Below, one piece after another: positions 668 to 12,492 of a DNA stretch of 12,492 nucleotides. Under the pieces are notes generated by a model. It was given only the letters and a program-made list of their open reading frames with translations, was not told the origin of the DNA and made no database searches. Position numbers and translations under genes: made by a program. This DNA comes from Chloroflexota bacterium (GTDB taxonomy: Bacteria > Chloroflexota > Anaerolineae > Aggregatilineales > UBA2796), in assembly GCA_021325095.1 (NCBI GenBank), contig JAJPHV010000108.1, positions 1 through 12,492 on the forward strand, written 5' to 3'. The stretch's first letter is position 1; each line of letters starts with the position of its first letter.

Positions 668-793
668 AATGAATTCCATCCTCTCTGGCTCGTAAAGCCT
701 TGTCGTTTGTTTGCGGGTGCTGCATCGCGCGCCTGTCACCGCACCGAATTGCATTGCCAGTGGGCGGCTTCAAGCACGGATATGCCCCGGAGA

Positions 794-827
794 CCATGCT
801 ACATCTTCCAGTCGGTGGAATGTCAAG
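794..827 (-). promoter_or_regulatory. MerR-type promoter/operator copy P2: -35 TTGACA (plus coords 821-826), 19-bp spacer, -10 TAGCAT (796-801); perfect dyad TTCCA-N5-TGGAA (806-820) inside the spacer
   Basis: Read on the minus strand: CTTGACATTCCACCGACTGGAAGATGTAGCATGG. It matches the promoter upstream of merR at 30 of 34 positions. A 19-bp spacer with an internal dyad is the classic MerR-family operator architecture. It sits about 120 nt upstream of the HMA gene start. Confidence 0.6.
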
Positions 828-948
828 CCCTCTGGGGCAAAGTGCATAGGCGAGATCGCCGTCAGCCGAGCGCCCTGGCTGCGCTCTTCACGGCTTCGTT
901 AAGCGTGGGATGGATGTGGATCGATTTGGCAAGGGGTTCTGCCGATGT

Positions 949-2289
949 TTACACCATGTAACTTATATCGGAGGATTCGGCTGGATGGACGAAGATCGTC
1001 TGTTTAATATCCGTCGCTGTGAGATGGTGGCGGATAGCAAGCGCGAACAGATTGATAACTTCGCCCGCATGGGAACCCAGCAGGTGCGCGCCAAGAATGC
1101 GTCCGGTGTCCGCGTCCACCAGCACTTTGAACGCCGTGTGTTTTTCATTAGTCCGGCGCGACGAATACCAGCCCTCTGTTTTCTGGAAGTTGACAGTAAA
1201 CTTAAGATCCTTTTCGCGCGCCTCCTCTTCATTCAGCCCCGTTCTTGCCAGCGCAGGAACGGTAAATACCACACTGGGCGTGCCGGTGTAGTCCGGCGTG
1301 CGTTGGTTGCCTCTAAGCAAATTGCTGGAAACAACATGTCCATCGGCAACGGCCACCGGGGTCAGGGGCATTCCCTTCGTAGCAGCCGCATCCCCAGCGG
1401 CATACACGGCAGGATTGGACACACTTTGAAGATAGTCGTTCACGACAACCCCGCGCGTCGTGTACTCAATGCCGCCTTGCTCAAGGTTGAGGCCCTCAAT
1501 GTCAGGGACACGTCCCGCGCCGTGTACGACGAGGTCCGATGGAAAACTACCTCCGTCGGACGTATGCACCCGCAGTTGGTCATTCTCTTTTTCAATGACG
1601 ACGACCTCCGATTGTAACCGCACGTCAATACCGATACTCCTGGTTGCAGCGACCAACTCTGTCACCAGATCCGCGTCGAAGGCTTCCAGCGGGCGTTTGC
1701 CGCGATGCAGAATCGTCACCTGCGCGCCGGCGCGAGCGGCAATATGGGCAAACTCGAATGAAATATACCCTCCGCCGATGAATACGATGCGCTCTGGCAG
1801 CGTTTCCAGTTCAAGAAAATCGGTACTGGTCGCTACGTATTCCGCGCCGGGAATACCCAGGTCACGGGGCTTCGCGCCCGTCGCAATGGCAATACGTTTC
1901 GCAGTCAGCGTTTCGCCATCGAGCTGGAGGCTGTTCGGGCCAACAAACTGTGCCTCGCCGTGATAGGTTGCGATACCGGAGCCACGGAACGATTTCTCGA
2001 TGTTCGCGGGTGTCGGGTCGGTAAAGGTGCGCTTGAAACGGATCAGGTCTGCCCAGTCAATCCGCATCTCGCCTGCAATCCCATGTCCAGTCATGCGGCG
2101 CTGCCAATCCATCAATTCGGCTGCGCCCACTAGCACTTTCTTCGGGTCGCAGCCGCGCAGAGCGCAAGTGCCGCCATACGGACGCGAATCGACCACAGCC
2201 ACTTCCCAACCACTCGAGCGCACTCGCCGCGCGATGTTTTGCCCGGCCATGCCAACGCCGATCACGACAAGATCAAATTCGTTACTCAT
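949..2289 (-). CDS. class I FAD-dependent pyridine nucleotide-disulfide oxidoreductase (glutathione-reductase/MerA-core family). It lacks the NmerA domain and the C-terminal Cys pair.
   Basis: 446 aa. The N-terminus has the FAD Rossmann motif DLVVIGVGMAGQ. The redox-active disulfide reads GGTCALRGCDPKK (CxxxxC). There is a second GxGxxG (FIGGGYISFE). The C-terminal HPAESSD resembles the His-Glu dyad of the dimerisation domain. It starts 46 nt after the MerT-like gene stop. Confidence 0.85.
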   Translation of the reverse strand: MSNEFDLVVIGVGMAGQNIARRVRSSGWEVAVVDSRPYGGTCALRGCDPKKVLVGAAELMDWQRRMTGHGIAGEMRIDWADLIRFKRTFTDPTPANIEKSFRGSGIATYHGEAQFVGPNSLQLDGETLTAKRIAIATGAKPRDLGIPGAEYVATSTDFLELETLPERIVFIGGGYISFEFAHIAARAGAQVTILHRGKRPLEAFDADLVTELVAATRSIGIDVRLQSEVVVIEKENDQLRVHTSDGGSFPSDLVVHGAGRVPDIEGLNLEQGGIEYTTRGVVVNDYLQSVSNPAVYAAGDAAATKGMPLTPVAVADGHVVSSNLLRGNQRTPDYTGTPSVVFTVPALARTGLNEEEAREKDLKFTVNFQKTEGWYSSRRTNEKHTAFKVLVDADTGRILGAHLLGSHAGEVINLFALAIRHHLTATDIKQTIFVHPAESSDISYMV

Positions 2290-2335
2290 GGTTCAACCTT
2301 TCCCTCCTGTGTCCCAAAGACTGGACGAATAGCGG

Positions 2336-2686
2336 CTATTGCCGGGCGCGATGTGTCACTGACTGACCGAGCGGTTCACAACATTCGCACGACTTTTCCA
2401 GGGGCAAGTGCTCGGCTTTCGGTCGGGGTTCGGTTGGCGTCAGCGACTGACGTTTAGGCTTGCTATCCTGGCTCAACCACACTGACCCCAGCCCAATGCC
2501 TCCAAAGAAAAGGACAGTGGATAAGGCGAACACCAGACCGGTGTTCGCACTCAACCAGGCACCGAACGCCGTACCCGCCGTCAGAGCCAACACAATCGGC
2601 AGGGTGATCGCCAAATGACAGGGGCAGGCTATAATGCCAACGCCCGTGCTGACGTAACCTCGAATAGATCGGATTTTCGTGCTCAT
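2336..2686 (-). CDS. putative mercuric ion transport membrane protein (MerT/MerF-like; intramembrane CPC plus cytoplasmic CECC)
   Basis: 116 aa from MSTKIRS, which is preceded by GAGGAGG at 7 nt. The upstream Met of the longer ORF lacks a ribosome binding site. It has 2-3 predicted TM helices with ACPCH inside the first. The basic C-terminal tail ends in SCECCEP. It lies immediately downstream of merA. Cys pairs in a TM helix and a cytoplasmic tail are the hallmark of MerT/MerF/MerC importers, although this arrangement is non-canonical. Confidence 0.5.
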   Translation of the reverse strand: MSTKIRSIRGYVSTGVGIIACPCHLAITLPIVLALTAGTAFGAWLSANTGLVFALSTVLFFGGIGLGSVWLSQDSKPKRQSLTPTEPRPKAEHLPLEKSCECCEPLGQSVTHRARQ

Positions 2687-2728
2687 CAGGTTTTTCCTCC
2701 TCGACAATTGAAGCGAACAAGCAATCTT

Positions 2729-4420
2729 TCAACCTGCGCAGCACGACAGCATCGCCACATCTTTCTCAAAGGTCTGCGCGGCCAGCTTCAGCCCTTCGAC
2801 CATCGTCAGATACGGGAAGAAGGTATCGATCAAGTCCTGTAACGTCATGCCCGCTTTGATGGCAACCACCGCCGGTTGGACAACCTCCCCTGCATCGGGG
2901 GCCAGCACATGAGCGCCGAGCAGGTGATCCGTCGTCGCGTCAGCGACCAGTTTGATCAAACCGCGTGTGTCGCGGTTAGCCAGGGCGCGCGGAACGTATG
3001 CCAGCGGTAAAACAGAGGTCTTGACCTCATAGCCCGCCTGGCGCGCCTGCTGTTCGGTCAGCCCCACTGCGGCCACTGCCGGATCGGTGAACGTGACTCG
3101 CGGCAGCACGCTCGTATCATAAACACGGCCTGACCCGTTGAGCGCGTTGTCCGCAGCCAGCGTGCCGCTATAGGCGGCCACATACACGAACATATCGCGC
3201 CCGGTCACGTCGCCTGCGGCATAGACGTAGGGATTGGTCGTGCGTAGCTGTTCATCCACAATGATTTCGCCCCGTTTGCCGAGTTTGACCCCGGCTTCTT
3301 CGAGGGCCAGGCCGCGCGTGTTGGGTCGCCGACCCGTCGCCATCAGCAGGGCTTTTGCCTCGAAGACCAGCGTTTCACCAGCGCGTTCAGCCGTGAGGCG
3401 GTAACCGCGTTCATTCCGGTCTACCCGTGAGATGGTCACGCCAGCCTCAACGATCAGCCCTTCTTCGCGCAGGTAGCCGGTCAGCGCTTCGCTGATCTCT
3501 GGCTCTTCAAAGGGGGTGATCACCGGCATCACTTCCAACACCGTGACCTTCGTGCCGAAGCGCGCGTAAGCCTGAGCCAGTTCCAGCCCGACGGCGTTCG
3601 CGCCGACCACAATCATCGAAGCCGGACGCTCGGTCAGGTCCAGCGCCGAGGTGCTGTCCAGATAGCCAGCTTCCTCCAGACCGGGAATGGGGGGAGTCCA
3701 TGGCTTGGCACCGGTAGCGATGATGATCTTGCCAGGCGTGTACACGGTGGGTGTCGCGTTGTTCCCGACGGGCGCAATCTCAACCCGGTTGTCGCCCAGC
3801 AGTTTAGCCCGGCCCTGGAGGTAGGTAATGTCCGGGTAGGCAGCCAGCACATCAATGTATTTGGCCTGGCGAAGCGTCGTGACCAGTTCATCCTTCTGGG
3901 TGATCACAGCCCCCCAATCTCCGGCGGCGCTCAGGCGCACCGCTCCCTGGAATGGGTGATGCCCCGCCAGGTGATGCAGCTCGGCGGCACGGATGATCGT
4001 TTTAGACGGCACACAACCGACATTGACGCAGGTGCCGCCGATGGTGCTGGCTTCGACGAGGGCGACACGCTTACCCAGTTCAGCCCCCTTGATCGCTGCC
4101 GCGAAGCCTGCCGACCCCCCACCGATGACCATCAAATCGTAATCTTGAGAAGCGCTGTCACCATCCTGGCTGGTGGGCTGTAGCTCACGGCGCGCTTTCA
4201 CCGTCGCGCGATAACCCGCCTCTTTGACTGCCGTGACGAGCGCCTCGCTGGGCACGTCGCTGCTGGCCTTCAAGGTCGCTTGTGCTGACTGCCAGCTGGG
4301 TACGTCCACCTCGCTGACGCCAGGAACGCTCTTCAACGCTTTGGTGACGTGAACCGCGCAGCTATCGCAGGTCATCCCGCGCACGTCGAGCGTAATGTGT
4401 TGTACTGTCTCCGTTGTCAT
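2729..4420 (-). CDS. merA: mercuric reductase MerA with an N-terminal HMA (NmerA) domain
   Basis: 563 aa. The N-terminus has GMTCDSCAVHV (HMA). FAD binding is DLMVIGGGSAGFAAA. The redox-active site is GGTCVNVGCVPSK. The C-terminus ends LSCCAG, the vicinal Cys pair diagnostic of MerA. GAGAGGGAAACCA precedes the ATG as a ribosome binding site. Confidence 0.95.
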   Translation of the reverse strand: MTTETVQHITLDVRGMTCDSCAVHVTKALKSVPGVSEVDVPSWQSAQATLKASSDVPSEALVTAVKEAGYRATVKARRELQPTSQDGDSASQDYDLMVIGGGSAGFAAAIKGAELGKRVALVEASTIGGTCVNVGCVPSKTIIRAAELHHLAGHHPFQGAVRLSAAGDWGAVITQKDELVTTLRQAKYIDVLAAYPDITYLQGRAKLLGDNRVEIAPVGNNATPTVYTPGKIIIATGAKPWTPPIPGLEEAGYLDSTSALDLTERPASMIVVGANAVGLELAQAYARFGTKVTVLEVMPVITPFEEPEISEALTGYLREEGLIVEAGVTISRVDRNERGYRLTAERAGETLVFEAKALLMATGRRPNTRGLALEEAGVKLGKRGEIIVDEQLRTTNPYVYAAGDVTGRDMFVYVAAYSGTLAADNALNGSGRVYDTSVLPRVTFTDPAVAAVGLTEQQARQAGYEVKTSVLPLAYVPRALANRDTRGLIKLVADATTDHLLGAHVLAPDAGEVVQPAVVAIKAGMTLQDLIDTFFPYLTMVEGLKLAAQTFEKDVAMLSCCAG

Positions 4421-4529
4421 TGGTTTCCCTCTCTACCTATCCGCAAAATTAGACTGATGCCTTGAGCCAGTGGTCATACCGGCTGTGTCAACCATGTTGA
4501 TAAATGGCTATGCAACACGCTACCTTTCT

Positions 4530-5189
4530 TTACCCGGCATTTTGCATTGCCTGCTGAGGCGTATCCGGCGAAACTGGTGGGTGTACTAGCCTGTACGTCG
4601 CTACGGGGATCGCTTTGCCCTTAAGCGACAGATCGCCGATAAACTGGTACTCATCCGGCTCCAGCAGCTTCTGGATGTCGGCGGTGCAGAGGGCTTGTTT
4701 TCCCTCGGCTAATGCGGCCAGGCGGCTGGCCGTATTGACCGTGTCGCCGATGATGGTCAAGTCCTGTGTGCGCCCAGTCCCTAGCCGGGATAACATGGCC
4801 GTACCTCGCGCCAGTCCGATGCCGAGGGTTGGACAGACTGTCGATGGATAGCACGATTTTATGCGCTCGAACCCCTCAATCAGCGTCAGCGCCGTGTGGT
4901 AGGCGTGTTTCACTTCGCGGCGCGGTTCGGTGGTGTCGCTGAAGGCAGCCAGGATGCCATCGCCCAGGAACTTGAAAATCTCTCCAGCCTGTTGCTGAAT
5001 AATGTCGCTGGCAAGCTGGTAAAACCGATCCAGCAACGTCACAACCTCACGCACCGGCAGTTGCTCGGTCAGGGAGGTGAAGCCCCGCACATCGGCAAAC
5101 ATCACCGTCAGAGGCTGTTCGCGCACGCAGCAATCCACAACAATAGCAGGGTGGTCGCTGCTTAACGGGCGCAGTGCTGACGCGCTCAT
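4530..5189 (-). CDS. stand-alone class III nucleotidyl cyclase (adenylate/guanylate cyclase catalytic domain)
   Basis: 219 aa. VMFADVRGFT carries the first metal Asp and KFLGDGILAAF the second. GDTVNTASRL carries the transition-state Asn and Arg. The C-terminal LKGKAIPVATYRL is the typical end of a cyclase homology domain. A 28-aa N-terminal extension contains VVDCCV. Its start overlaps the stop of the upstream CBM48-like gene as ATGA. Confidence 0.85.
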   Translation of the reverse strand: MSASALRPLSSDHPAIVVDCCVREQPLTVMFADVRGFTSLTEQLPVREVVTLLDRFYQLASDIIQQQAGEIFKFLGDGILAAFSDTTEPRREVKHAYHTALTLIEGFERIKSCYPSTVCPTLGIGLARGTAMLSRLGTGRTQDLTIIGDTVNTASRLAALAEGKQALCTADIQKLLEPDEYQFIGDLSLKGKAIPVATYRLVHPPVSPDTPQQAMQNAG

Positions 5190-5476
5190 GTGTTGACGAC
5201 CGAGTTCTCTGAACCGAACGGGTTAGGGACGTAAGCGTCCGCGTGCCAATCGTTATGCCATTCGGTCTCATTGACCAGGTAGCGGAATTGATGGGCGCAC
5301 TGTGTTGGCAGTGTAAAGGTTGCTGTAAATTTTCCTTCCTTCGTCTGCTTCATCACCTGGGGCTGCCAGTCCGTAAACTCGCCACAAATCCAGGCGTGTT
5401 GTGCCTGCAATTCGCCGGGCAGGACGAAGGGGACCTGACAGCTTTGCCCATCTGAAGCATAGGCTTTCTCGATCAT
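5186..5476 (-). CDS. small CBM48 / AMPK-beta glycogen-binding-domain-like (E-set) protein
   Basis: 96 aa. VPFVLPGELQAQHAWICGEFTDWQ...KFTATFTLPTQCAHQFRYLVNETEWHNDWHA resembles the AMPK-beta GBD / isoamylase N-terminal CBM48 pattern: V-P-x-x-F-x-W, G-x-F-x-x-W, a KF/YKF beta strand and W-x-x-D. A ribosome binding site GGGAAAGGA sits 8 nt before the ATG. It is translationally coupled to the cyclase. Confidence 0.55.
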   Translation of the reverse strand: MIEKAYASDGQSCQVPFVLPGELQAQHAWICGEFTDWQPQVMKQTKEGKFTATFTLPTQCAHQFRYLVNETEWHNDWHADAYVPNPFGSENSVVNT

Positions 5477-5609
5477 CGGCCTGATCCTTTCCCTAACTTG
5501 CAGCAGTGCGTGGCTGTAAATCGGCCATAATGTCTCACTGTGGCTCCTTCAAAGGTGCCCCCCTTGCTGTACTGCTATGTGCAGCGTTTGAGCGACTGCC
5601 ATGCCACTC

Positions 5610-6002
5610 TTACTCAGATGACCAATGCCAACCTGCATTTGTGGGTCTTCGCGCCAGACCCTGCGCGGCATTACACATAGCCTTGAGTTCGTCACGGACT
5701 TGCTCAAGGTCACGAATACGATCCTGAATTTCCCCGATCCGGCGGCCCATCAGGTTCATGACGTAGCGGCAAGGAGGCTCACCGCGTTCTCGAAAAGCTA
5801 CAATTTCGGCAATCTCATCCAGCCCCAGGTCCAGCACATGCACCCGTCGGATGAAGCGCAGCCGTTCCACGTCCGCATCCTCGTATCCCCGGTAGCCATT
5901 TGGGGCACGTTTGGCAGGCGGCAGCAAGCCGATTTCCTCGTAGAAACGGATGGTCTTGCACGGCACGCCTGTCCGGTGACTCAACTCGCTGATTTGAAAC
6001 AT
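5610..6002 (-). CDS. merR: MerR-family metal-responsive transcriptional regulator
   Basis: 130 aa from MFQISELS, preceded by GGAGGTGA at 5 nt. The HTH is ISELSHRTGVPCKTIRFYEEIGLL, followed by a coiled-coil dimerisation helix. Cys sits at the start of the dimerisation helix (EPPCRYV) and at AMCNAAQG. It lies directly downstream of the P1 dyad promoter. Confidence 0.8.
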   Translation of the reverse strand: MFQISELSHRTGVPCKTIRFYEEIGLLPPAKRAPNGYRGYEDADVERLRFIRRVHVLDLGLDEIAEIVAFRERGEPPCRYVMNLMGRRIGEIQDRIRDLEQVRDELKAMCNAAQGLARRPTNAGWHWSSE

Positions 6003-6034
6003 CGCTGTCACCTCCACATCTCGCATTCTTTCAG

Positions 6035-6068
6035 CCATGCTACGACTTCCTGTCGCTGGAATGTCAAG
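6035..6068 (-). promoter_or_regulatory. MerR-type promoter/operator copy P1: -35 TTGACA (6062-6067), 19-bp spacer, -10 TAGCAT (6037-6042), dyad TTCCt-N5-TGGAA
   Basis: Read on the minus strand: CTTGACATTCCAGCGACAGGAAGTCGTAGCATGG. The implied transcription start is about 28 nt upstream of the merR ATG at 6002. The 19-bp spacer is suboptimal for sigma70 and typical of MerR-activated promoters. Confidence 0.6.
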
Positions 6069-6137
6069 AGGGTCTTTTAGCGGTAGTGAAGAAACGCTTC
6101 GATTCAGACCAGACTGAAAGAAGCGGCCTTTGTATAC

Positions 6138-6356
6138 TCAATCCTCCTGGTGAAGTGTCTCACGGTCGGCTTTGGGTACTTGTTCACCGATCCAGTCTGC
6201 CACGGGCGACTGCAAGCTGCCGCCGCAAGCTGGACAGCGTGGCTCAGTATCGGCACAGTATGCGCCACAGGCCACACACTGCAACTCACCTTCGTACATG
6301 GCCCGTACCAGTTCGATGATCGCCTGATAATCGCCCCCCATACGACAACACATCAT
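6138..6356 (-). CDS. small Cys-rich zinc-ribbon protein
   Basis: 72 aa from MMCCRMGG, preceded by AAAAGGAAGGGA as a ribosome binding site. It contains C-x2-C-x3-C-x6-C-x2-C (CVACGAYCADTEPRCPACGG) plus an N-terminal MMCC. That is 8 Cys in 72 aa. Confidence 0.45.
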   Translation of the reverse strand: MMCCRMGGDYQAIIELVRAMYEGELQCVACGAYCADTEPRCPACGGSLQSPVADWIGEQVPKADRETLHQED

Positions 6357-6539: not shown

Positions 6540-6791
6540 TCAGGTTTGTCCTGAGCTAATCGCGATGAGGGCATCGAGGATTGCGAGAAGCTCTGTTCGG
6601 CAATTCGGTACACAGGCCCGGCACTTGTGAAAAGCCGGTGCCCACTGATCTAGAGAGGCGTCGGTCTCGCTCAACAACTCGGTGAAAAACTCCAACAGGG
6701 CAAAACATTCTGCCGCTGTCAAGGATGTTGGTTCTTCCCTGGTCAATTCGACCAACAATTCCCATAGCTCACGACTCATCTCGCTTAACAC
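6540..6791 (-). CDS. hypothetical small acidic helical protein with a H-x-C-x2-C-x3-C motif
   Basis: About 79-83 aa. The start is GTG at 6791 or ATG at 6779, and the ribosome binding site is weak. The sequence includes ELWELLVELTREE, LLEFFTELLSETD and FHKCRACVPNC. No family is recognised. It is the first gene downstream of the C7-centred palindrome. Confidence 0.35.
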   Translation of the reverse strand: MLSEMSRELWELLVELTREEPTSLTAAECFALLEFFTELLSETDASLDQWAPAFHKCRACVPNCRTELLAILDALIAISSGQT

Positions 6792-6847
6792 CCCAGTAGA
6801 GGCAACCTCCTACAGCTTGCGCCTCGTGAAGCTGCAATCCCGGCTAT

Positions 6848-6872
6848 TATCCCTATCCCCCCCATAGGGATA
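6848..6872. promoter_or_regulatory. candidate CsoR-type operator: perfect 9-bp inverted repeat TATCCCTAT-C7-ATAGGGATA
   Basis: TATCCCTAT at 6848-6856 and ATAGGGATA at 6864-6872 are exact reverse complements around a CCCCCCC centre. Known CsoR operators are pseudo-palindromes built around a G/C tract. The site lies in the divergent intergenic region between csoR and the 83-aa ORF. A second dyad AGGGG-N7-CCCCT lies at 6930-6946. Confidence 0.45.
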
Positions 6873-6962
6873 TAGTCATTGTATCATACGGCTAATCCCT
6901 TGTCAACTAAGTTTGAGGAATTATCTGCCAGGGGTAAATATCCCCTAGCCCCGGATATGGAT

Positions 6963-6991
6963 TTGACTTTGACGTTACCGAAATTTATAAT
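6963..6991 (+). promoter_or_regulatory. sigma70 consensus promoter of csoR (-35 TTGACT 6963-6968, 17-bp spacer, -10 TATAAT 6986-6991)
   Basis: Near-perfect hexamers at ideal spacing. The predicted transcription start is about 6998. AAAGGA at 7017-7022 is a Shine-Dalgarno 8 nt before the ATG at 7031. Confidence 0.65.
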
Positions 6992-7030: not shown

Positions 7031-7348
7031 ATGACGAATACAACGCCTGACCTTGGTGAGCAGACAACCACCTACCTCGATCCTGAACTGGTCGGAAATC
7101 TGCAAGATCGCCTTAGCCGAATCGCTGGTCACGTTAGCGCGGTTTCGCGGATGCTGGGTGAGCAAAAAGACTGTGATCAAATCCTGATCCAGATGGCCGC
7201 CATTAAAGCGGCCATGAATCAGGTGATCATCAAGACTCTGGAAGGACATATTTCGATCTGTATTCAGACACAAACGGCTGAAGGACAGAACAGTGAAGCA
7301 CTGGAAAGCTTAATGAAAGCCTTGAATGTTGTGCTAAAAAATTCCTAA
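7031..7348 (+). CDS. csoR: CsoR/RcnR-family (DUF156) metal-sensing transcriptional repressor
   Basis: 105 aa. LQDRLSRIAGHVSAVSRML...KDCDQILIQMAAIKAAMNQVIIKTLEGHISIC matches the CsoR helical bundle. The Cu(I)-ligand positions Cys (KDC), His and Cys (EGHISIC, H-x3-C) are all present. A consensus promoter and ribosome binding site lie upstream. Confidence 0.9.
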   Translation: MTNTTPDLGEQTTTYLDPELVGNLQDRLSRIAGHVSAVSRMLGEQKDCDQILIQMAAIKAAMNQVIIKTLEGHISICIQTQTAEGQNSEALESLMKALNVVLKNS

Positions 7349-7942: not shown

Positions 7943-8377
7943 ATGTATATGCCGCTGGTGACACGATGGGCCATTCGGGCCGCTATGGTTTACCTGTTGC
8001 TAGGGCTGCTGACCGGAACCCTCTACTGGGCGAATCTACAATGGGCATTGTGGCCGCCGCTGGCCGCGTTAAGCCCAACCTATCTGCATTTGCTGGTGAT
8101 CGGCTGGCTGACCCAGCTTGTTTTCGGCGTCATCTACTGGATGTTCCCGATCATCAACAAAGCCAACATGCGCGGCGACCCCCGGCTGGCATGGAGCGTG
8201 TTGCTCCTGCTCAATGCGGGCATGATCCTGCGCCTGATCTGCGAACCCTGGCGCGCCAGCGCTCCCAATGACCTGAACGGCCTGGGGCTGGTCGTGTCGG
8301 CCATATTGCTCACGCTGGCTGGCTACCTGTTCGTGGTCGTTTGCTGGCCGCGTGTGCGTGAGAGAGCAGGAAGCTGA
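7943..8377 (+). CDS. 4-TM integral membrane protein, paralog A (conserved H-x2-LLV-x-GWL-x-QL-x2-GV-x-YW-x2-P motif)
   Basis: 144 aa. Four hydrophobic helices. The ATG at 7943 or 7949 is preceded by GGAAAGGA. A paralog follows 3 nt later. Confidence 0.6.
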   Translation: MYMPLVTRWAIRAAMVYLLLGLLTGTLYWANLQWALWPPLAALSPTYLHLLVIGWLTQLVFGVIYWMFPIINKANMRGDPRLAWSVLLLLNAGMILRLICEPWRASAPNDLNGLGLVVSAILLTLAGYLFVVVCWPRVRERAGS

Positions 8378-8380
8378 CCA

Positions 8381-8836
8381 ATGCCCCTCTTGAGTCGCTG
8401 TTTCATCCGCTCTGCGCTGGTTTGCCTGGCAATTGGTTTCACGTTGGGCGGGCTGATGCTCTCGGCGAAGGGTGGCGCTGTCGATGCGCGGGTCTGGGCC
8501 TGGCTGCCCATGCACATCGCTTTGCTGGTCAATGGCTGGCTCGTTCAGCTTTCACTGGGCGTCATGTACTGGATCTTGCCGCGTATTCATCTGGGGGATC
8601 GCGGGCGGCCCGCCTGGGCGTGGAGCGGGTTCGTCTGCCTGCAAGTTGGCCTGCTGCTGGCGCTCGTTTCCGGGGCCAGCCTGTGGATTGCAGAGGCAGC
8701 CAACCTGTTTGCACCGGCGATGGTGTTACAGGCGGCAGGCATCGTCCTGTTTGCCGTCCATGCCTGGCCGCGCATCCGCCCCGCGATTGTGCGCGCCGCG
8801 CAGGGCGCAGGTGACAGAACAGTTTCAAACTCCTGA
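8381..8836 (+). CDS. 4-TM integral membrane protein, paralog B, translationally coupled to paralog A
   Basis: 151 aa. It shares HIALLVNGWLVQLSLGVMYWILP and AWAWS with paralog A (HLLVIGWLTQLVFGVIYWMFP and LAWS). AGGAAG lies at the end of gene A. Confidence 0.6.
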   Translation: MPLLSRCFIRSALVCLAIGFTLGGLMLSAKGGAVDARVWAWLPMHIALLVNGWLVQLSLGVMYWILPRIHLGDRGRPAWAWSGFVCLQVGLLLALVSGASLWIAEAANLFAPAMVLQAAGIVLFAVHAWPRIRPAIVRAAQGAGDRTVSNS

Positions 8837-8919: not shown

Positions 8920-10962
8920 CTAACTCTGTTTGTCGCCGCTCTCGGCCACGTCCATCGCACCGACCACATTCTGACCATTGCCAGACTTGTTGGCGATCTG
9001 GTCAAGGATGCTCTGGCGGATGCGTTCGACCTCGGTACTGGGCCTGCTCTGAGCGCCCGCCTTCCCGTCAACGGTCAACTTCTCGGACAGCAGCATCGCC
9101 ATCAGCGCCTCGAACGCGCTGTAGCTGCCGCCATTGCCACTGCCGTTGCCGCCGGTGATCACCATCTTCGGCACGATGTCGATACCGGATTTCTCGACGG
9201 CAGCGCTGAAGCGATCCAACGCCTGTTGGAGCACCTGGAACTGCGGCCCGCCGTAAGCGCGTACCTGTTCCTCGACGGCCAGGGCGCGGGCAATCCCGAT
9301 ACGGGCTTCGCGCTCGGCGTCCGCTTCGGCCAGCGCTTTGATCTTGGCCGCTTCTTGCAGCGAGCGCTGGTAGGAAGCCTTACCTTCGTTGCTCTGGATA
9401 GTGATGCTGATCTGCGATTCGGTCAGCGATTGCTGCTGCCGGGCGATGGCTTCGGCCTCGCGGAGTTCACGCTCTTTGGCAGCGGCAGCTTCCTTGCGGC
9501 TGTACGTTTCGATCTGTTCGACGGCGATCTGGCGATCCCGGAGCTGGGCCAGGATTTGCTCGATCTTCTGATCCGAGGCCGAGGACGCGGGCGTGCCAAT
9601 CAGCACTTCTTCCAGTTCCAGGTTGTAATGTGCAAAGCGATCCTTCATCTCCCGCGATGATTGATCTTGAATCTGGCTGCGTTCCTGGATCAACTGGATA
9701 AGGGTGCGCGTCTGCCCGATGTTCTTGAAGTACGCCGCCACCATCGGGTCAAGGGTCTGGTCAACCAGGCGCTTGATGTCGCCAAAGCGCTGGATGACCA
9801 GCGGCGCTTTGCGGTAGTCGATGTGAATGACCACCGAAAGCGGCAGAAGCGGCTCAAAAGCATCCTTCGTGATCAGTTCCACTGCCGACAGGTTTTCGTC
9901 GAAGCGATGCGCGCCGACCTCGTCCTTGTTCCACTTCAAGATGATGTTGGTAGTCGGCACCAGAATGACTTTCCCCGCATAGGTGTTGAAGGCATACTTG
10001 CCGGGCATCAGCGGCGTACTCCAAACACCCTTGAAGCCTTTCTCCACCATTTCGCCGTGCTTGTAATCTTCGCCGGAGATGTCGCCGCCTCGTCCGCCTG
10101 TGTACGACACAATGACCCCGACGAAACCGACGTCGATCACTGTCTTGGGAATCATCTCGACGGTGCCGAACAGCCGATTGATGAAATACGTGCCCTCGAC
10201 GAGCACCTGCAACTGGCGACCACGCCGGCCACCCGCTGCCAGGAACTTCTCCGGGTCCTGGAAATTGTTGTGATACGTACTGGGGTCCTTCGGGTCGTCG
10301 CCTACTGTCGGGGCGATGATGTCATCCTGGGAAAGGGATGGGCCGTCGTGTACGGTTACGATTCCGACCAGATCGTCTGCACCTTTGATGACGACAGGCC
10401 GGAAGCCCTCGCGCTCCTGGATCAGGGCGGCCATCCGTTTGAAAGTGGCTTCTTCCTCACGACTGATCGGCAGGTAGTAGTTGCCTGCTTCGGTCAACAC
10501 CACGAACTGCGCCAGGTTGATGGCATATGTACCTTCACGCAGGATTTCACGCTGCGGGCCGCGCTGCCCACCGTGTTTCAGAAAGCCTTCCACGTCCTGG
10601 AAGGTCTTGCCTTCGGGGATGACCGCACCGAGGGTCTGTGTCGGGCGCATCGGCATACCGTCGCGCGCGAAGACGTACCCGATCTGGCCCTGCGGAATCG
10701 TGACCAATGGCGCAAGATGAACACGATACTGGAAGGGCATCAGAAAATGGACGCCACCGCGCAGAACATTCGGTTGAAAACCGGCCTCTTTGTTGAGCGC
10801 AATGAACCCGTCCTTGACGGAACCCTTGCCCGAAAAGACCTTTTCCACGATGCCGATACGATTGTTGGGGACGATGCGGATGACCCTGGTCAACAGAAAG
10901 TACAGCACGACGATTATGGCGACCAGCAGGAGAACTGTAACGGCAAGCTGTAGCTGCGGCAT
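8920..10962 (-). CDS. flotillin-family SPFH (band 7) membrane scaffold protein
   Basis: 680 aa. It has an N-terminal TM hairpin, an SPFH-like core (RIVPNNRIGIVEKVFSGKG) and a long Glu/Ala-rich coiled coil (EAAAAKERELREAEAIARQQ, ALAEADAEREARIG) typical of the flotillin domain. GAGGAG sits 7 nt before the ATG. Confidence 0.9.
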   Translation of the reverse strand: MPQLQLAVTVLLLVAIIVVLYFLLTRVIRIVPNNRIGIVEKVFSGKGSVKDGFIALNKEAGFQPNVLRGGVHFLMPFQYRVHLAPLVTIPQGQIGYVFARDGMPMRPTQTLGAVIPEGKTFQDVEGFLKHGGQRGPQREILREGTYAINLAQFVVLTEAGNYYLPISREEEATFKRMAALIQEREGFRPVVIKGADDLVGIVTVHDGPSLSQDDIIAPTVGDDPKDPSTYHNNFQDPEKFLAAGGRRGRQLQVLVEGTYFINRLFGTVEMIPKTVIDVGFVGVIVSYTGGRGGDISGEDYKHGEMVEKGFKGVWSTPLMPGKYAFNTYAGKVILVPTTNIILKWNKDEVGAHRFDENLSAVELITKDAFEPLLPLSVVIHIDYRKAPLVIQRFGDIKRLVDQTLDPMVAAYFKNIGQTRTLIQLIQERSQIQDQSSREMKDRFAHYNLELEEVLIGTPASSASDQKIEQILAQLRDRQIAVEQIETYSRKEAAAAKERELREAEAIARQQQSLTESQISITIQSNEGKASYQRSLQEAAKIKALAEADAEREARIGIARALAVEEQVRAYGGPQFQVLQQALDRFSAAVEKSGIDIVPKMVITGGNGSGNGGSYSAFEALMAMLLSEKLTVDGKAGAQSRPSTEVERIRQSILDQIANKSGNGQNVVGAMDVAESGDKQS

Positions 10963-11189: not shown

Positions 11190-11265
11190 GAACCCGTAGC
11201 TCAATCGGTAGAGCAGCGGACTTTTAATCCGTTGGTTGAGAGTTCGAGTCTCTCCGGGTTCACCA
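11190..11265 (+). tRNA. tRNA-Lys (anticodon UUU), with genome-encoded CCA
   Basis: Manual cloverleaf: acceptor GAACCCG/CGGGTTC; D-arm GCTC-AATCGGTA-GAGC; anticodon stem GCGGA/TCCGT with loop CTTTTAA; 5-nt variable loop; T-arm GAGAG-TTCGAGT-CTCTC; discriminator A then CCA. Confidence 0.93.
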
Positions 11266-11267
11266 CC

Positions 11268-11309
11268 CACAAACCGCATGGAGATGCGGTTTGTGCTTTT
11301 CTTGCGTTT
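11268..11309 (+). terminator. rho-independent terminator after the tRNA: 12-bp stem CACAAACCGCAT / ATGCGGTTTGTG, GGAG loop, then CTTTTCTTGCGTTT
   Basis: A perfect 12-bp stem followed by a T-rich tract immediately 3' of the tRNA. Confidence 0.7.
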
Positions 11310-11599
11310 AGGCCAACGGACATGCAGTCTTTTGTTCCTGTGCCGATCTCCCGGAAGATCAACGCTGAGTGAGCGGCGGCTCTCGCAGGCCAGCATATGC
11401 CTGCGGAACCCCTTCGAGTGGGACTGACCGCTGGAACCAGTCGCCATCTTCGGGATAGATCAGGCTGAGTACCCCCACCTCGATCTCCTCCTCGCCGTCG
11501 TCGCTGGCGATGATCCCGACAAGCTGGCCGGGGTAAGCCCGTGCCAGGCCTATCAAGACGGCGACGATCTCCTCCGGGTTGATGGTGATGATCTTGACG

Positions 11600-12335
11600 C
11601 TCCTCCTCCTCACTCGAAAATACGTCTGTGAGCGGGCTGAATCGCTCGTGGCGCTCAGACAACTCCCGCCCGCCGAACACCGCGTAGAATGACGCAGTGG
11701 TGTTCACATTACTGTGGCCCATGAGCTGTGACACTTCGGGCAGGCTGGCTCCCTTGCGCAGCATCTCGCGGGCAAAGCCGTGCCGGAAGCTGTGAGGGTT
11801 GGCACGGCCCGTCACCCCGGCCTTGCGCTTCAGGCGCTTCAGGATGTGCTTCAGGCCGTTGACGGTCAGGGGCCGCGCGTAGCTTCGGGGAAGCAGTGAG
11901 CAAAAGACCGTTGTGGCCTGTGGTGGGCGGACGGCCAGCCAGTCCGCTAGGGAGGCCTCGGTGCGGGCCGTGAAGGGCACGCTGCGCAGCCGGTCGCCCT
12001 TCTCCGTGACGACGGCCCGCCGGTGGGCAAAGTCGATGGCGTCCAGGGTCAGCGAAACCAGCCCCCGGCTCGGCAGCCGGTATCGACAAAGACAGCCAGC
12101 ATGGCCCGGTTTCGCTTGCCGAGAGGAGTGTCATCCGTCGCGGCGAACAGTTTGCGGAGATCGTCCAGATCGACGGCCTTTGGCTGTGGCTGGGAGCGGC
12201 GCGGCAGACGGATGCACTGCATGGGGTTCGTGGCCGAGGCGAGGTTGTGCTCGGCCCAAGCCCAGTTGAAGAAGCGTTTCAGGGCGCGGATGCGACCCCG
12301 GATGGTCTCAACGGCCAGTCCGCCTGACGTTTCGG
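11600..12335 (-). pseudogene. tyrosine recombinase / phage-type integrase, degraded: frameshift near 12060, no in-frame stop after the catalytic Tyr, N-terminus replaced
   Basis: The segment 12335-12049 encodes LAVETIRGRIRALKRFFNWA...GKRNRAMLAVFVDTGCRAGG, with the core-binding domain and box I Arg. The next frame continues as LVSLTLDAIDF...ANPHSFRHGFAREMLRKGASL...LMGHSNVNTTASFYAVF, giving the HxxR, His and Tyr catalytic residues. The frame switch lies in a C5 run at 12063-12067. The frame then stays open through the tRNA gene to 11201. The 3' end of the annotated span is only estimated. Confidence 0.7.
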
Positions 12336-12492
12336 GTCGATGATGGCGGCACTGGGCTGCGCGTCTCGGCCCAGCGGAATACGTAACTTTTCGCGCAGGA
12401 CGGTATTGATGCGCTCCCCAATCCCCGCTCGTCGCCACTGCCGATAATAGTCATGCACCGTCTTGTACGGTGGAAAATCATGCGGCAACAAA
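12336..12492 (-). mobile_element. 5' fragment of an IS5-family (IS427-group) transposase gene, partial at the window edge and joined directly to the integrase remnant
   Basis: LPHDFPPYKTVHDYYRQWRRAGIGERINTVLREKL...AQPSAAIID matches the conserved OrfA region of IS427-group transposases, where the usual form is LPxDFPPWxTVYxxFRRWrxdGtWe ... PSAgiIDSQSVKT. Similarity ends after IID, exactly where integrase-like coding begins in another frame. Confidence 0.55.

Follow-up and report, generated by a model that had tools for sequence, protein, structure and literature searches.

Which regulator, and how many promoters, control the mercuric reductase gene cluster on contig JAJPHV010000108.1 (GenBank assembly GCA_021325095.1) of a Chloroflexota bacterium of the Aggregatilineales? 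The window, meaning the whole stretch of 12,492 nucleotides (nt) that was analysed, contains two short sequences that a sequence-only reading had taken for near-identical copies of a MerR-type promoter/operator, through which a single Hg(II)-sensing regulator would co-control two transcripts. We consider it probable that both copies are functional distortion-type promoters that are bound by a dimer of the protein encoded at 6002..5610 and drive two transcription units. The adjacent regulator, however, is a loop-less member of the MerR family that has lost most of its metal ligands, and the identity of its inducer is the weakest step of this proposal.

On the minus strand, site 1 (6068..6035) reads CTTGACATTCCAGCGACAGGAAGTCGTAGCATGG and site 2 (827..794) reads CTTGACATTCCACCGACTGGAAGATGTAGCATGG. 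Direct reading confirmed that 30 of the 34 positions are identical, that both copies lie on the minus strand and that the window holds only these two; a repeat search of the window listed them as an 88% direct repeat (family D2), and the likeness ends at the borders of the 34-mer. The hexamers TTGACA and TAGCAT, separated by a 19-base-pair (bp) spacer, are present at both sites as had been read. The claimed TTCCA-N5-TGGAA dyad is perfect in the spacer of site 2, whereas site 1 carries TTCCA-GCGAC-AGGAA, that is, TTCC-N7-GGAA. The GG after TAGCAT, also part of the claimed layout, varies in relatives, as in locus L164 (TAGCATAGG). Transcription is predicted to begin near 6030 at site 1 and near 789 at site 2. 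The placement ahead of the merR-like and HMA genes was read correctly and is kept in related genomes, with the predicted transcription start of site 1 ~28 nt 5' of the Shine-Dalgarno-led ATG of the regulator.

A degenerate pattern covering both sites with at most three mismatches was found at exactly two places in the window, against 0.00 expected from 200 dinucleotide shuffles, and the exact TTCCA-N5-TGGAA motif occurs twice (site 2, and 10588-10602 within an SPFH gene) against 0.01 expected. Comparison with ~20 regions upstream of MerR homologues in other Chloroflexota loci disclosed a shared arrangement of TTGAC[CA], 19 bp and TAnnnT located ~50 nt before the start codon, in which the family dyad is a 9-3-9 element, ACCTTCCAG-N3-CTGGAAGGT, spanning the -35 and the spacer. 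The 19-bp spacing between the -35 and -10 hexamers was present in all homologous promoters examined. We built a position matrix from 12 such upstream sites, all from other genomes and none from the window; it gave 38.3 bits for site 2 and 31.3 for site 1, compared with 6.3 bits for the best of 50 shuffles, and all other positions of the window and of the 19-kb locus L001 stayed below 8 bits. A length of only 34 nt would suit a chance match or a functionless relic, for example a fragment of a mobile element, but no shuffle matches are expected, the matrix scores are 31 and 38 bits, the sites are conserved across genomes in which the adjacent gene has a synonymous divergence (dS) of ~0.5, and the flanks of the two sites are unrelated, so that no transposed block is involved. 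On shuffles, matrix scores and conservation we ruled out a chance or mobile-element repeat, an explanation that we regard as extremely improbable.

Operons with the same gene order and with regulators 77-84% identical to that of the window were found in L164/L165 (GCA_040959955.1), L167/L168 (two JGI metagenomes) and L174, and site 1 is retained at the equivalent position in all of them. Its 31-mer is shared unchanged by L164 and L174, with a single base changed in L167. Since the adjacent regulator gene shows a dS of 0.46-0.71 between these related genomes, the unchanged 31-mer is strong evidence of constraint. In the alignment of site 1, the operator, ~20 nt directly 5' of the -35, the Shine-Dalgarno sequence and the ATG are all fixed, and the distal upstream flank and the bases just past the -10 are variable. 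Site 2 is found at the equivalent position in L168, where it is identical, and in L164, where two bases differ; its conservation is less discriminating because the 110-nt leader that follows it is conserved as well. This leader of the HMA gene (680-789, minus strand) is predicted to form a long hairpin (-42.9 kcal/mol, z = -2.4) and is kept in L164 and L168. A search of Rfam returned tRNA only, with nothing in the leaders or gaps of the window.

More distant relatives carry the same element in several copies. Five sites occur in L005, where they precede a DUF3237 gene, merR_a-merA, merR_b-cyclase-reductase, a gene for an HMA fusion and one for a membrane protein; merR and merA are each preceded by a site in L008, and the three sites of L175 lie before merB, merR and HMA-merA-like genes. 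Multi-operator mer clusters are normal in these relatives, with 3-5 promoters per cluster in L005 and L175, and the operators before HMA genes in these two loci make an operator ahead of an HMA gene an old, recurrent feature. Architecture, specificity and conservation hold at both positions of the window, and we predict with high confidence, on the basis of the DNA, that both elements are functional MerR-family long-spacer (distortion-type) promoters.

To what kind of operator do the sites belong? Permina et al. (2006; PMC1526738) described the proteobacterial MerR signal as TCCGTAC-(4)-GTACGGA, the Firmicute MerR signal as ACCGTGTAC-(4)-GTACAGGGT, and, each with a 19-bp spacer, the CueR signal as ACCTTCCC-(5)-TGGAAGGT and the HmrR signal as ACCTTCCAG-(3)-CTGGAAGG. 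Each window site matched the HmrR signal at 14 of 17 positions, and the Chloroflexota family consensus matches it fully. The best window matches to the classical mer operators (7-4-7 or 9-4-9) had at least 4-5 mismatches, and none lay at the promoters. The same matrix also picked the copA and copZ promoters beside proteobacterial homologues (L040, L041, L049 and L055). The mechanism class would be MerR-type, yet the DNA signal reads as CueR/HmrR-like and not as a classical mer operator; the earlier designation of a MerR-type operator stands for the long-spacer class and fails for the sequence itself.

A further dyad of this type was observed away from any promoter. Positions 10586-10604, inside the SPFH/flotillin-like gene (8920..10962, minus strand), read CCTTCCA-N5-TGGAAGG, a 7-5-7 palindrome without mismatches that comes closer to the CueR/HmrR-type dyad than the two promoter sites do. 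This stretch, which codes for KTFQDVEGF, lacks -35 and -10 hexamers. The palindrome could serve as a third binding site or have arisen by coincidence from the choice of codons; no SPFH homologues for checking it were present among the fetched loci.

We then asked whether the adjacent protein is the Hg(II)-sensing MerR that had been assumed. The winged helix-turn-helix and the long dimerisation helix are intact, and the metal-binding loop is missing. The protein scored below every NCBIfam equivalog cutoff: 96.1 bits for CadR-PbrR, 92.5 for ZntR, 83.4 for MerR (TIGR02051, cutoff 150.85), 83.1 for CueR (TIGR02044, cutoff 147.4), and 35.3 and 28.1 for the MerD models TIGR02054 (cutoff 103.65) and NF033783 (cutoff 170). 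Full-length relatives, 62-66% identical in the multiple alignment and 66-70% by local BLASTP, have C78 and a C-terminal CVCHLI motif. In Bacillus MerR the Hg ligands are C79, C114 and C123, and each Hg site draws C79 from one subunit and C114 and C123 from its partner (PMC4551924). Alignment with this protein pairs the first Cys of CVCHLI with C123, and LPED with CPEN, which holds C114. In the window protein C78 is the equivalent of C79, the C114 position is occupied by L116, and the C123 segment is gone through a frameshift.

The frameshift, a scar recognised by DNA alignment and three-frame translation, lies just before the PEDxQM..CVCHL segment. Read in the +1 frame, the gene gives REDPQMQVGIGHLS, matching the family PEDVQMRxCVCHLI; the corresponding residues are QVCVCPLS in L164, QFCVCPLS in L167, QVCICRPG in L174 and QVGIGHLS in the window, where GIG replaces CxC. 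The window regulator and proteins P0002-P0005 end instead in AAQGLARRPxNAG..SSE, and the unusually long gap of 133 nt between the regulator and the CBM48-like gene (5477-5609) is partly an untranslated remnant of the ancestral regulator C-terminus. The AlphaFold model (mean predicted local distance difference test score, pLDDT, of 88) places the dimerisation helix at residues 79-117, with C110 inside it, and C15 at the start of the recognition helix; the tail (118-130) is disordered, and there is no loop or C-terminal helix. A canonical Hg(II)-sensing MerR as the adjacent regulator is not borne out, given the old 1-nt frameshift that removed the CxC ligands and the scores below the cutoffs. 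With these ligands lost, Hg(II) sensing, if any, must use other residues or a partner regulator.

We evaluated C110 as a stand-in for the loop cysteine and found no support, as P0004 and P0005 lack it and the model places it within the helix. A CadR alignment that pairs C110 with C112 conflicts with the alignment on the 'CP' motif of Bacillus MerR and CueR. The comparison with the CueR reference sequence, in which the regulator has Cys78 and no loop, agrees with the PDB alignments up to residue 115.

The ratio of nonsynonymous to synonymous substitution rates (dN/dS) over codons 1-112 is 0.13-0.27, and the truncated regulator is under purifying selection, not decaying. This ratio, at a dS of ~0.5-0.7, rules out a recent pseudogene. 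Assembly error as the cause of the truncation was likewise ruled out, as the identical gene occurs in ENA, Logan and two NCBI assemblies, the window sequence was recovered in five independent assemblies, among them the locus L001, and the frameshift is common to proteins that are 77-94% identical. In the relatives L164, L167 and L174 the CxC codons can still be recognised in the +1 frame at a dS of ~0.5-0.7, and the dN/dS of the tail is slightly lower in that frame (0.34-0.39) than in frame 0 (0.31-0.73), over only 42 nt. No slippery or homopolymer sequence that could serve a programmed frameshift restoring CxC was seen at the site, and the +1 frame of the window reads GIG. In the relatives with CVC in the +1 frame, low-level +1 frameshifting could give a short protein and a full-length sensor from one gene, a variant to which we assign a low probability. 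Some automatic calls start the gene at ATG 6036-6038, giving 142 residues; this codon lies inside the -10 hexamer (TAGCATGG) and reads ATA in L164, and this start was rejected. We prefer the 130-residue start because its Shine-Dalgarno sequence and the ATG at 6002 are conserved.

The loss of the loop coincides with a second feature. Among 120 hits, nine proteins (P0001-P0005, P0021, P0043, P0058 and P0062) carry Cys15 (codon 5958-5960, in PCKTIRFYEE), and all nine are without CxC; Cys15 occurs in none of the CxC-motif proteins (95 by strict pattern and three more on inspection), and some other proteins have neither. P0043, P0058 and P0062 form a second loop-less group of 113-residue proteins. 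The operator TTGACATTCCAGCGACTGGAA.. lies upstream of both P0043 and P0062, with a cyclase gene following P0043 and a CBM48-like gene upstream of P0062. A neighbour-joining tree did not unite the two Cys15 groups and is too weak to decide on a single origin. Most Cys15 proteins with identified neighbours are followed by a class III cyclase, and in one case a CBM48-like gene lies upstream. Cyclase genes were seen downstream of the loop-less regulator in L005 (merR_b), L164, L167, L168 and L177, and only the CBM48-like gene was identified there in L174; the synteny of the CBM48-like gene is kept in L164, L167 and L174. The window regulator belongs to a selectively maintained MerR-family lineage that lost the C-terminal CxC ligands. 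We think it rather unlikely, though conceivable, that such loop-less proteins with Cys15 and Cys78 respond to Hg(II) or thiol stress in a novel way, such as through a Cys15/Cys78 site or a feed-forward loop that depends on the cyclase, in which case the operators would couple mercury detoxification to second-messenger signalling.

How would the two promoters operate? With TTGACA and TAGCAT 19 bp apart, the spacing would be too long for efficient open-complex formation. A dimer of the 6002..5610 protein would bind the CueR/HmrR-like dyad in the spacer, repress in its unliganded form and presumably activate by untwisting the spacer. Site 1 would autoregulate the unit of merR-like, CBM48-like, cyclase, merA, merE-like and glutathione-reductase-like genes, and site 2 would drive the HMA chaperone and the 116-residue membrane protein, possibly with redoxin/DsbD genes beyond the window. 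The distortion-type promoter layout as first proposed is supported by the 19-bp spacer, the internal dyad and the conserved sites; an extension to Hg(II) as the effector is not. The inference that the adjacent protein binds DNA and regulates itself is well supported, and Hg(II) responsiveness is not so supported.

Several observations weigh against this scheme of two promoters served by the adjacent regulator. By direct reading, arm complementarity against the family 9-3-9 dyad is 5 of 9 at site 1 and 6 of 9 at site 2, and the -35 of site 2 is weakened to CTGACA in L164. Of the family triad of C78 and CxC, the regulator has kept C78 alone. The island of GCA_040959955.1 also encodes, 12 kb further downstream, a full-length paralogue with the CxC motif (P0033), which is preceded by the third near-identical operator there, TTGACATTCCAGCGACGGGAAGATGTACCAT. 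The minus-strand interval from the reductase stop (949) to site 2 (827) yielded no terminator, and its fold has z = 0.09 versus shuffles. Finally, a strong sigma70-type promoter at 6906..6878 (minus strand; TTGACA/TACAAT with TG, 17-bp spacer) faces the operon.

The paralogue bears on the claim that a single regulator co-controls both sites, which is not established: its almost identical operator in a related genome means that another protein could be the real activator. The operators would then be real and the activator a full-length CxC paralogue encoded elsewhere, with the loop-less protein acting as a metal-blind repressor or anti-activator (a MerD-like function) or as a heterodimer partner giving C78. 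Heterodimers are conceivable, since the Hg sites of Bacillus MerR join cysteines of both subunits (PMC4551924). The lost CxC motif of the local regulator is in line with this, as are the GCA_040959955.1 island, which holds both a truncated and a full-length regulator with three near-identical operators, and L005, which pairs the CxC regulator merR_a with the truncated merR_b. However, neither the window nor the 19 kb of L001 contains a second MerR-family gene, every relative has the truncated gene at the head of the operon, where it would be autoregulated, and the score against the MerD model TIGR02054 is about a third of its cutoff. We hold this explanation to be a serious rival, possible but less likely, and retain autoregulation by the adjacent protein as the preferred one.

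The missing terminator and the upstream promoter bear on the number of transcripts, and the claim of two is not established either. Transcription from site 1 or from the 6906..6878 promoter could read through the reductase into the HMA gene as one long transcript, with site 2 as an internal booster. The genes of the cluster are all on the minus strand, co-directional and separated by short gaps, and no convincing terminator was found in any of the intergenic gaps; the rules of the terminator scan, though, may not suit Chloroflexota. Site 2 is a complete promoter, the better matrix match of the two and conserved, and relatives have separate operators before their HMA genes. One long transcript is for us a tentative alternative to two units.

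The upstream promoter has a divergent partner at 6963..6991 (plus strand; TTGACT/TATAAT, 17-bp spacer), the pair being located between a CsoR-family gene (7031..7348, plus strand) and small Cys-rich open reading frames (6791..6540 and 6356..6138, minus strand). The minus-strand promoter is followed by a palindrome, TATCCCTAT-G7-ATAGGGATA (6871..6847), which is likely the target (a CsoR-type operator) of the adjacent CsoR-family repressor. Just 5' of site 1, positions 6125..6088 (minus strand) can fold into a bulged hairpin, CGCUUC.UUCAG...CUGAA..GAAGCG, followed by GUUUCUUC; with z = -1.5 the fold is not significant, and this hairpin with its U-tract may be a weak terminator that insulates the operon from the upstream promoter. 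At the other end, the second unit may continue past the window edge, where L001 carries redoxin/AhpC-like, DsbD-like and further genes.

The ~100 nt 5' of the redoxin/AhpC-like gene (L001 14455-14563; L169 10800-10914) are conserved between two genomes and contain repeated ATAGAAA motifs. The preceding gene differs, being a membrane protein gene in one genome and merR2 in the other, and this stretch may control the redoxin-DsbD genes separately.

The features of the cluster are collected in Table 1. The gene content had been named correctly, except that the gene called MerT-like scores as MerE-like. MerA has an N-terminal HMA domain, the active site CVNVGC and a C-terminal CC pair, as read from its sequence. 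The linkage to merA and mer transport genes holds, with MerA above its cutoff and the MerE-like gene downstream of it. The best matches of the HMA protein are CopZ-type models, all below cutoff, and the 116-residue membrane protein shows weak similarity (E ~1e-6) to two L005 proteins whose genes likewise follow operators. The nearest genomes belong to the Chloroflexota (Anaerolineae and Aggregatilineales).

Table 1. Promoter/operator sites and genes of the cluster, in window coordinates (aa, amino acids).
Feature	Position	Strand	Details
Site 1 promoter/operator	6035..6068	-	-35 TTGACA 6067..6062; 19-nt spacer 6061..6043; -10 TAGCAT 6042..6037
MerR-family regulator, 130 aa	5610..6002	-	Shine-Dalgarno GGAGGTGA at 6015..6008; Pfam MerR_1, MerR, MerR-DNA-bind (PF13411, PF00376, PF09278)
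Frameshift scar	5612..5660	-	1-nt insertion relative to full-length relatives
CBM48/AMPK-CBM-like protein, 96 aa	5186..5476	-	PF16561, 30.7 bits; stop overlaps cyclase start
Class III nucleotide cyclase domain protein, 219 aa	4530..5189	-	PF00211, 63.5 bits
MerA mercuric reductase, 563 aa	2729..4420	-	TIGR02053, 562.5 bits (cutoff 454)
MerE-like small membrane protein, 116 aa	2336..2686	-	CPC motif; PF05052, 29.6 bits; NF010310, 36.3 bits (below cutoff)
Glutathione-reductase-like pyridine-nucleotide disulfide oxidoreductase, 446 aa	949..2289	-	Stop at 949
Site 2 promoter/operator	794..827	-	-35 TTGACA 826..821; 19-nt spacer 820..802; -10 TAGCAT 801..796
HMA/CopZ-like metallochaperone, 78 aa	443..679	-	PF00403; 78-aa gene call in L001
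Membrane protein, 116 aa	74..424	-	No family match; 18 nt after HMA gene

Some of these genes have relatives worth recording. A second MerE-like copy, 58% identical over 72 residues, lies downstream and outside the window (L001 16584-16859). A metagenome scan with the reductase protein returned mostly 55-68% identical relatives in other contexts; these homologues (L085-L163), on soil and sediment metagenome contigs, often adjoin MerR-like, HMA and MerA genes, which suggests that the glutathione-reductase-like oxidoreductase is a widespread accessory mer gene. The single 86% identical relative, L084, has other neighbours and no site 2.

The gene content also allowed us to weigh copper, in place of mercury, as the signal of a CueR/HmrR-type regulon. 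The HmrR and CueR signals (PMC1526738) match each site with 3 of 17 mismatches, the second unit begins with a CopZ-like chaperone gene, and the CsoR-family gene is nearby. Set against this, the dimerisation helix of the regulator starts with Cys and not with the Ser of CueR, the C112/C120 loop is missing and the CueR model score is 83 bits against a cutoff of 147. Neither a Cu(I) P-type ATPase nor a multicopper oxidase is encoded in the window or L001, the merA of the operon is genuine, and merB and merA are neighbours of the closest full-length relatives. A copper regulon is in our view quite improbable.

Comparison with the closest known systems, the CueR/HmrR regulons and the Gram-positive-type mer operons, illustrates where this cluster departs from them. 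As in the CueR/HmrR regulons (for example E. coli copA and cueO), a dyad resembling the ACCTTCC...GGAAGGT type is centred in a 19-bp spacer (PMC1526738); in those regulons one regulator serves at least two promoters with near-identical operators, as may be the case here, and a small HMA chaperone can be a target. In contrast, the predicted targets here are merA, merE-like, cyclase and reductase genes, with neither a Cu ATPase nor an oxidase among them, both window dyads are degenerate forms of this box, and the regulator has Cys78 instead of Ser, is without the C112-x7-C120 loop and scores below the model cutoff. With the classical mer systems (Tn21/Tn501; Bacillus RC607 and pI258-type) the cluster shares a (here putative) MerR-family repressor-activator at a long-spacer promoter. 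In the Gram-positive mer operons of the RC607 and pI258 type, merR is the first gene and is co-transcribed with merA; the cluster likewise has its merR-like gene first, with merA and a small Hg-transporter-like gene downstream. It differs from classical mer in its unrelated operator, in a regulator without two of the three Hg ligands (TIGR02051 score little more than half of the cutoff) and in its extra genes, namely the CBM48-like, cyclase and glutathione-reductase-like ones.

A further likeness is to full-length Chloroflexota homologues of the 'heavy metal-responsive' MerR kind, for example P0007 from an Aggregatilineales metagenome-assembled genome and P0033, which have the same recognition helix, operator type and -35/-10 and share merB, HMA, merA-like, redoxin and DsbD-like neighbours. 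Unlike these, the window protein ends after the dimerisation helix in an unrelated, disordered 13-residue frameshift tail and has Cys15. MerD resembles MerR in its helix-turn-helix and works at the MerR operator, and has no Hg-binding cysteines. It is, however, the distal gene of proteobacterial operons, whereas the window regulator is the first, autoregulated gene and scores below the MerD cutoffs; a MerD-like anti-activator role for it would be conjecture. As far as its sequence allows, the system falls outside MerR proper, CueR and MerD, and it has every testable feature of a long-spacer promoter.

Further features were observed in the genomic surroundings. Between the CsoR-family and SPFH genes, 7943-8377 and 8381-8836 (plus strand) encode two membrane proteins in tandem, paralogues that share 39% identity and have weak COX1/DUF2871-like matches. 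A tRNA-Lys(UUU) gene (11190-11265, plus strand) adjoins a fragmented tyrosine-recombinase (phage integrase) gene (11201-12438, minus strand) of which only the C-terminal part scores, and this region resembles the decayed edge of an integrated island on which the metal-resistance genes lie.

The promoter/operator pair itself is an ordinary, textbook-type element, and the regulon prediction adds little alone. What may matter is the loop-less regulator, often linked to a cyclase, at the head of a merA operon: in several related Chloroflexota operons it has presumably kept DNA binding, dimerisation and autoregulation, has lost its metal-binding cysteines, and still heads the operon under purifying selection. 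In the literature searched we found neither a link between a mer operon and an adenylate cyclase nor these Chloroflexota MerR operators. The operator can serve as a search motif for mer-type regulons in Anaerolineae-like genomes, in the form TTGACATTCCAGCGACNGGAAGNNGTAGCAT for the lineage and cTTGACCTTCCAGCGACTGGAAGGTGTATGCT for the wider family. For the biology of the family, the cluster places a nucleotide cyclase under a metal-type promoter, and its truncated regulator offers a natural test of which parts of MerR are needed for repression and which for activation.

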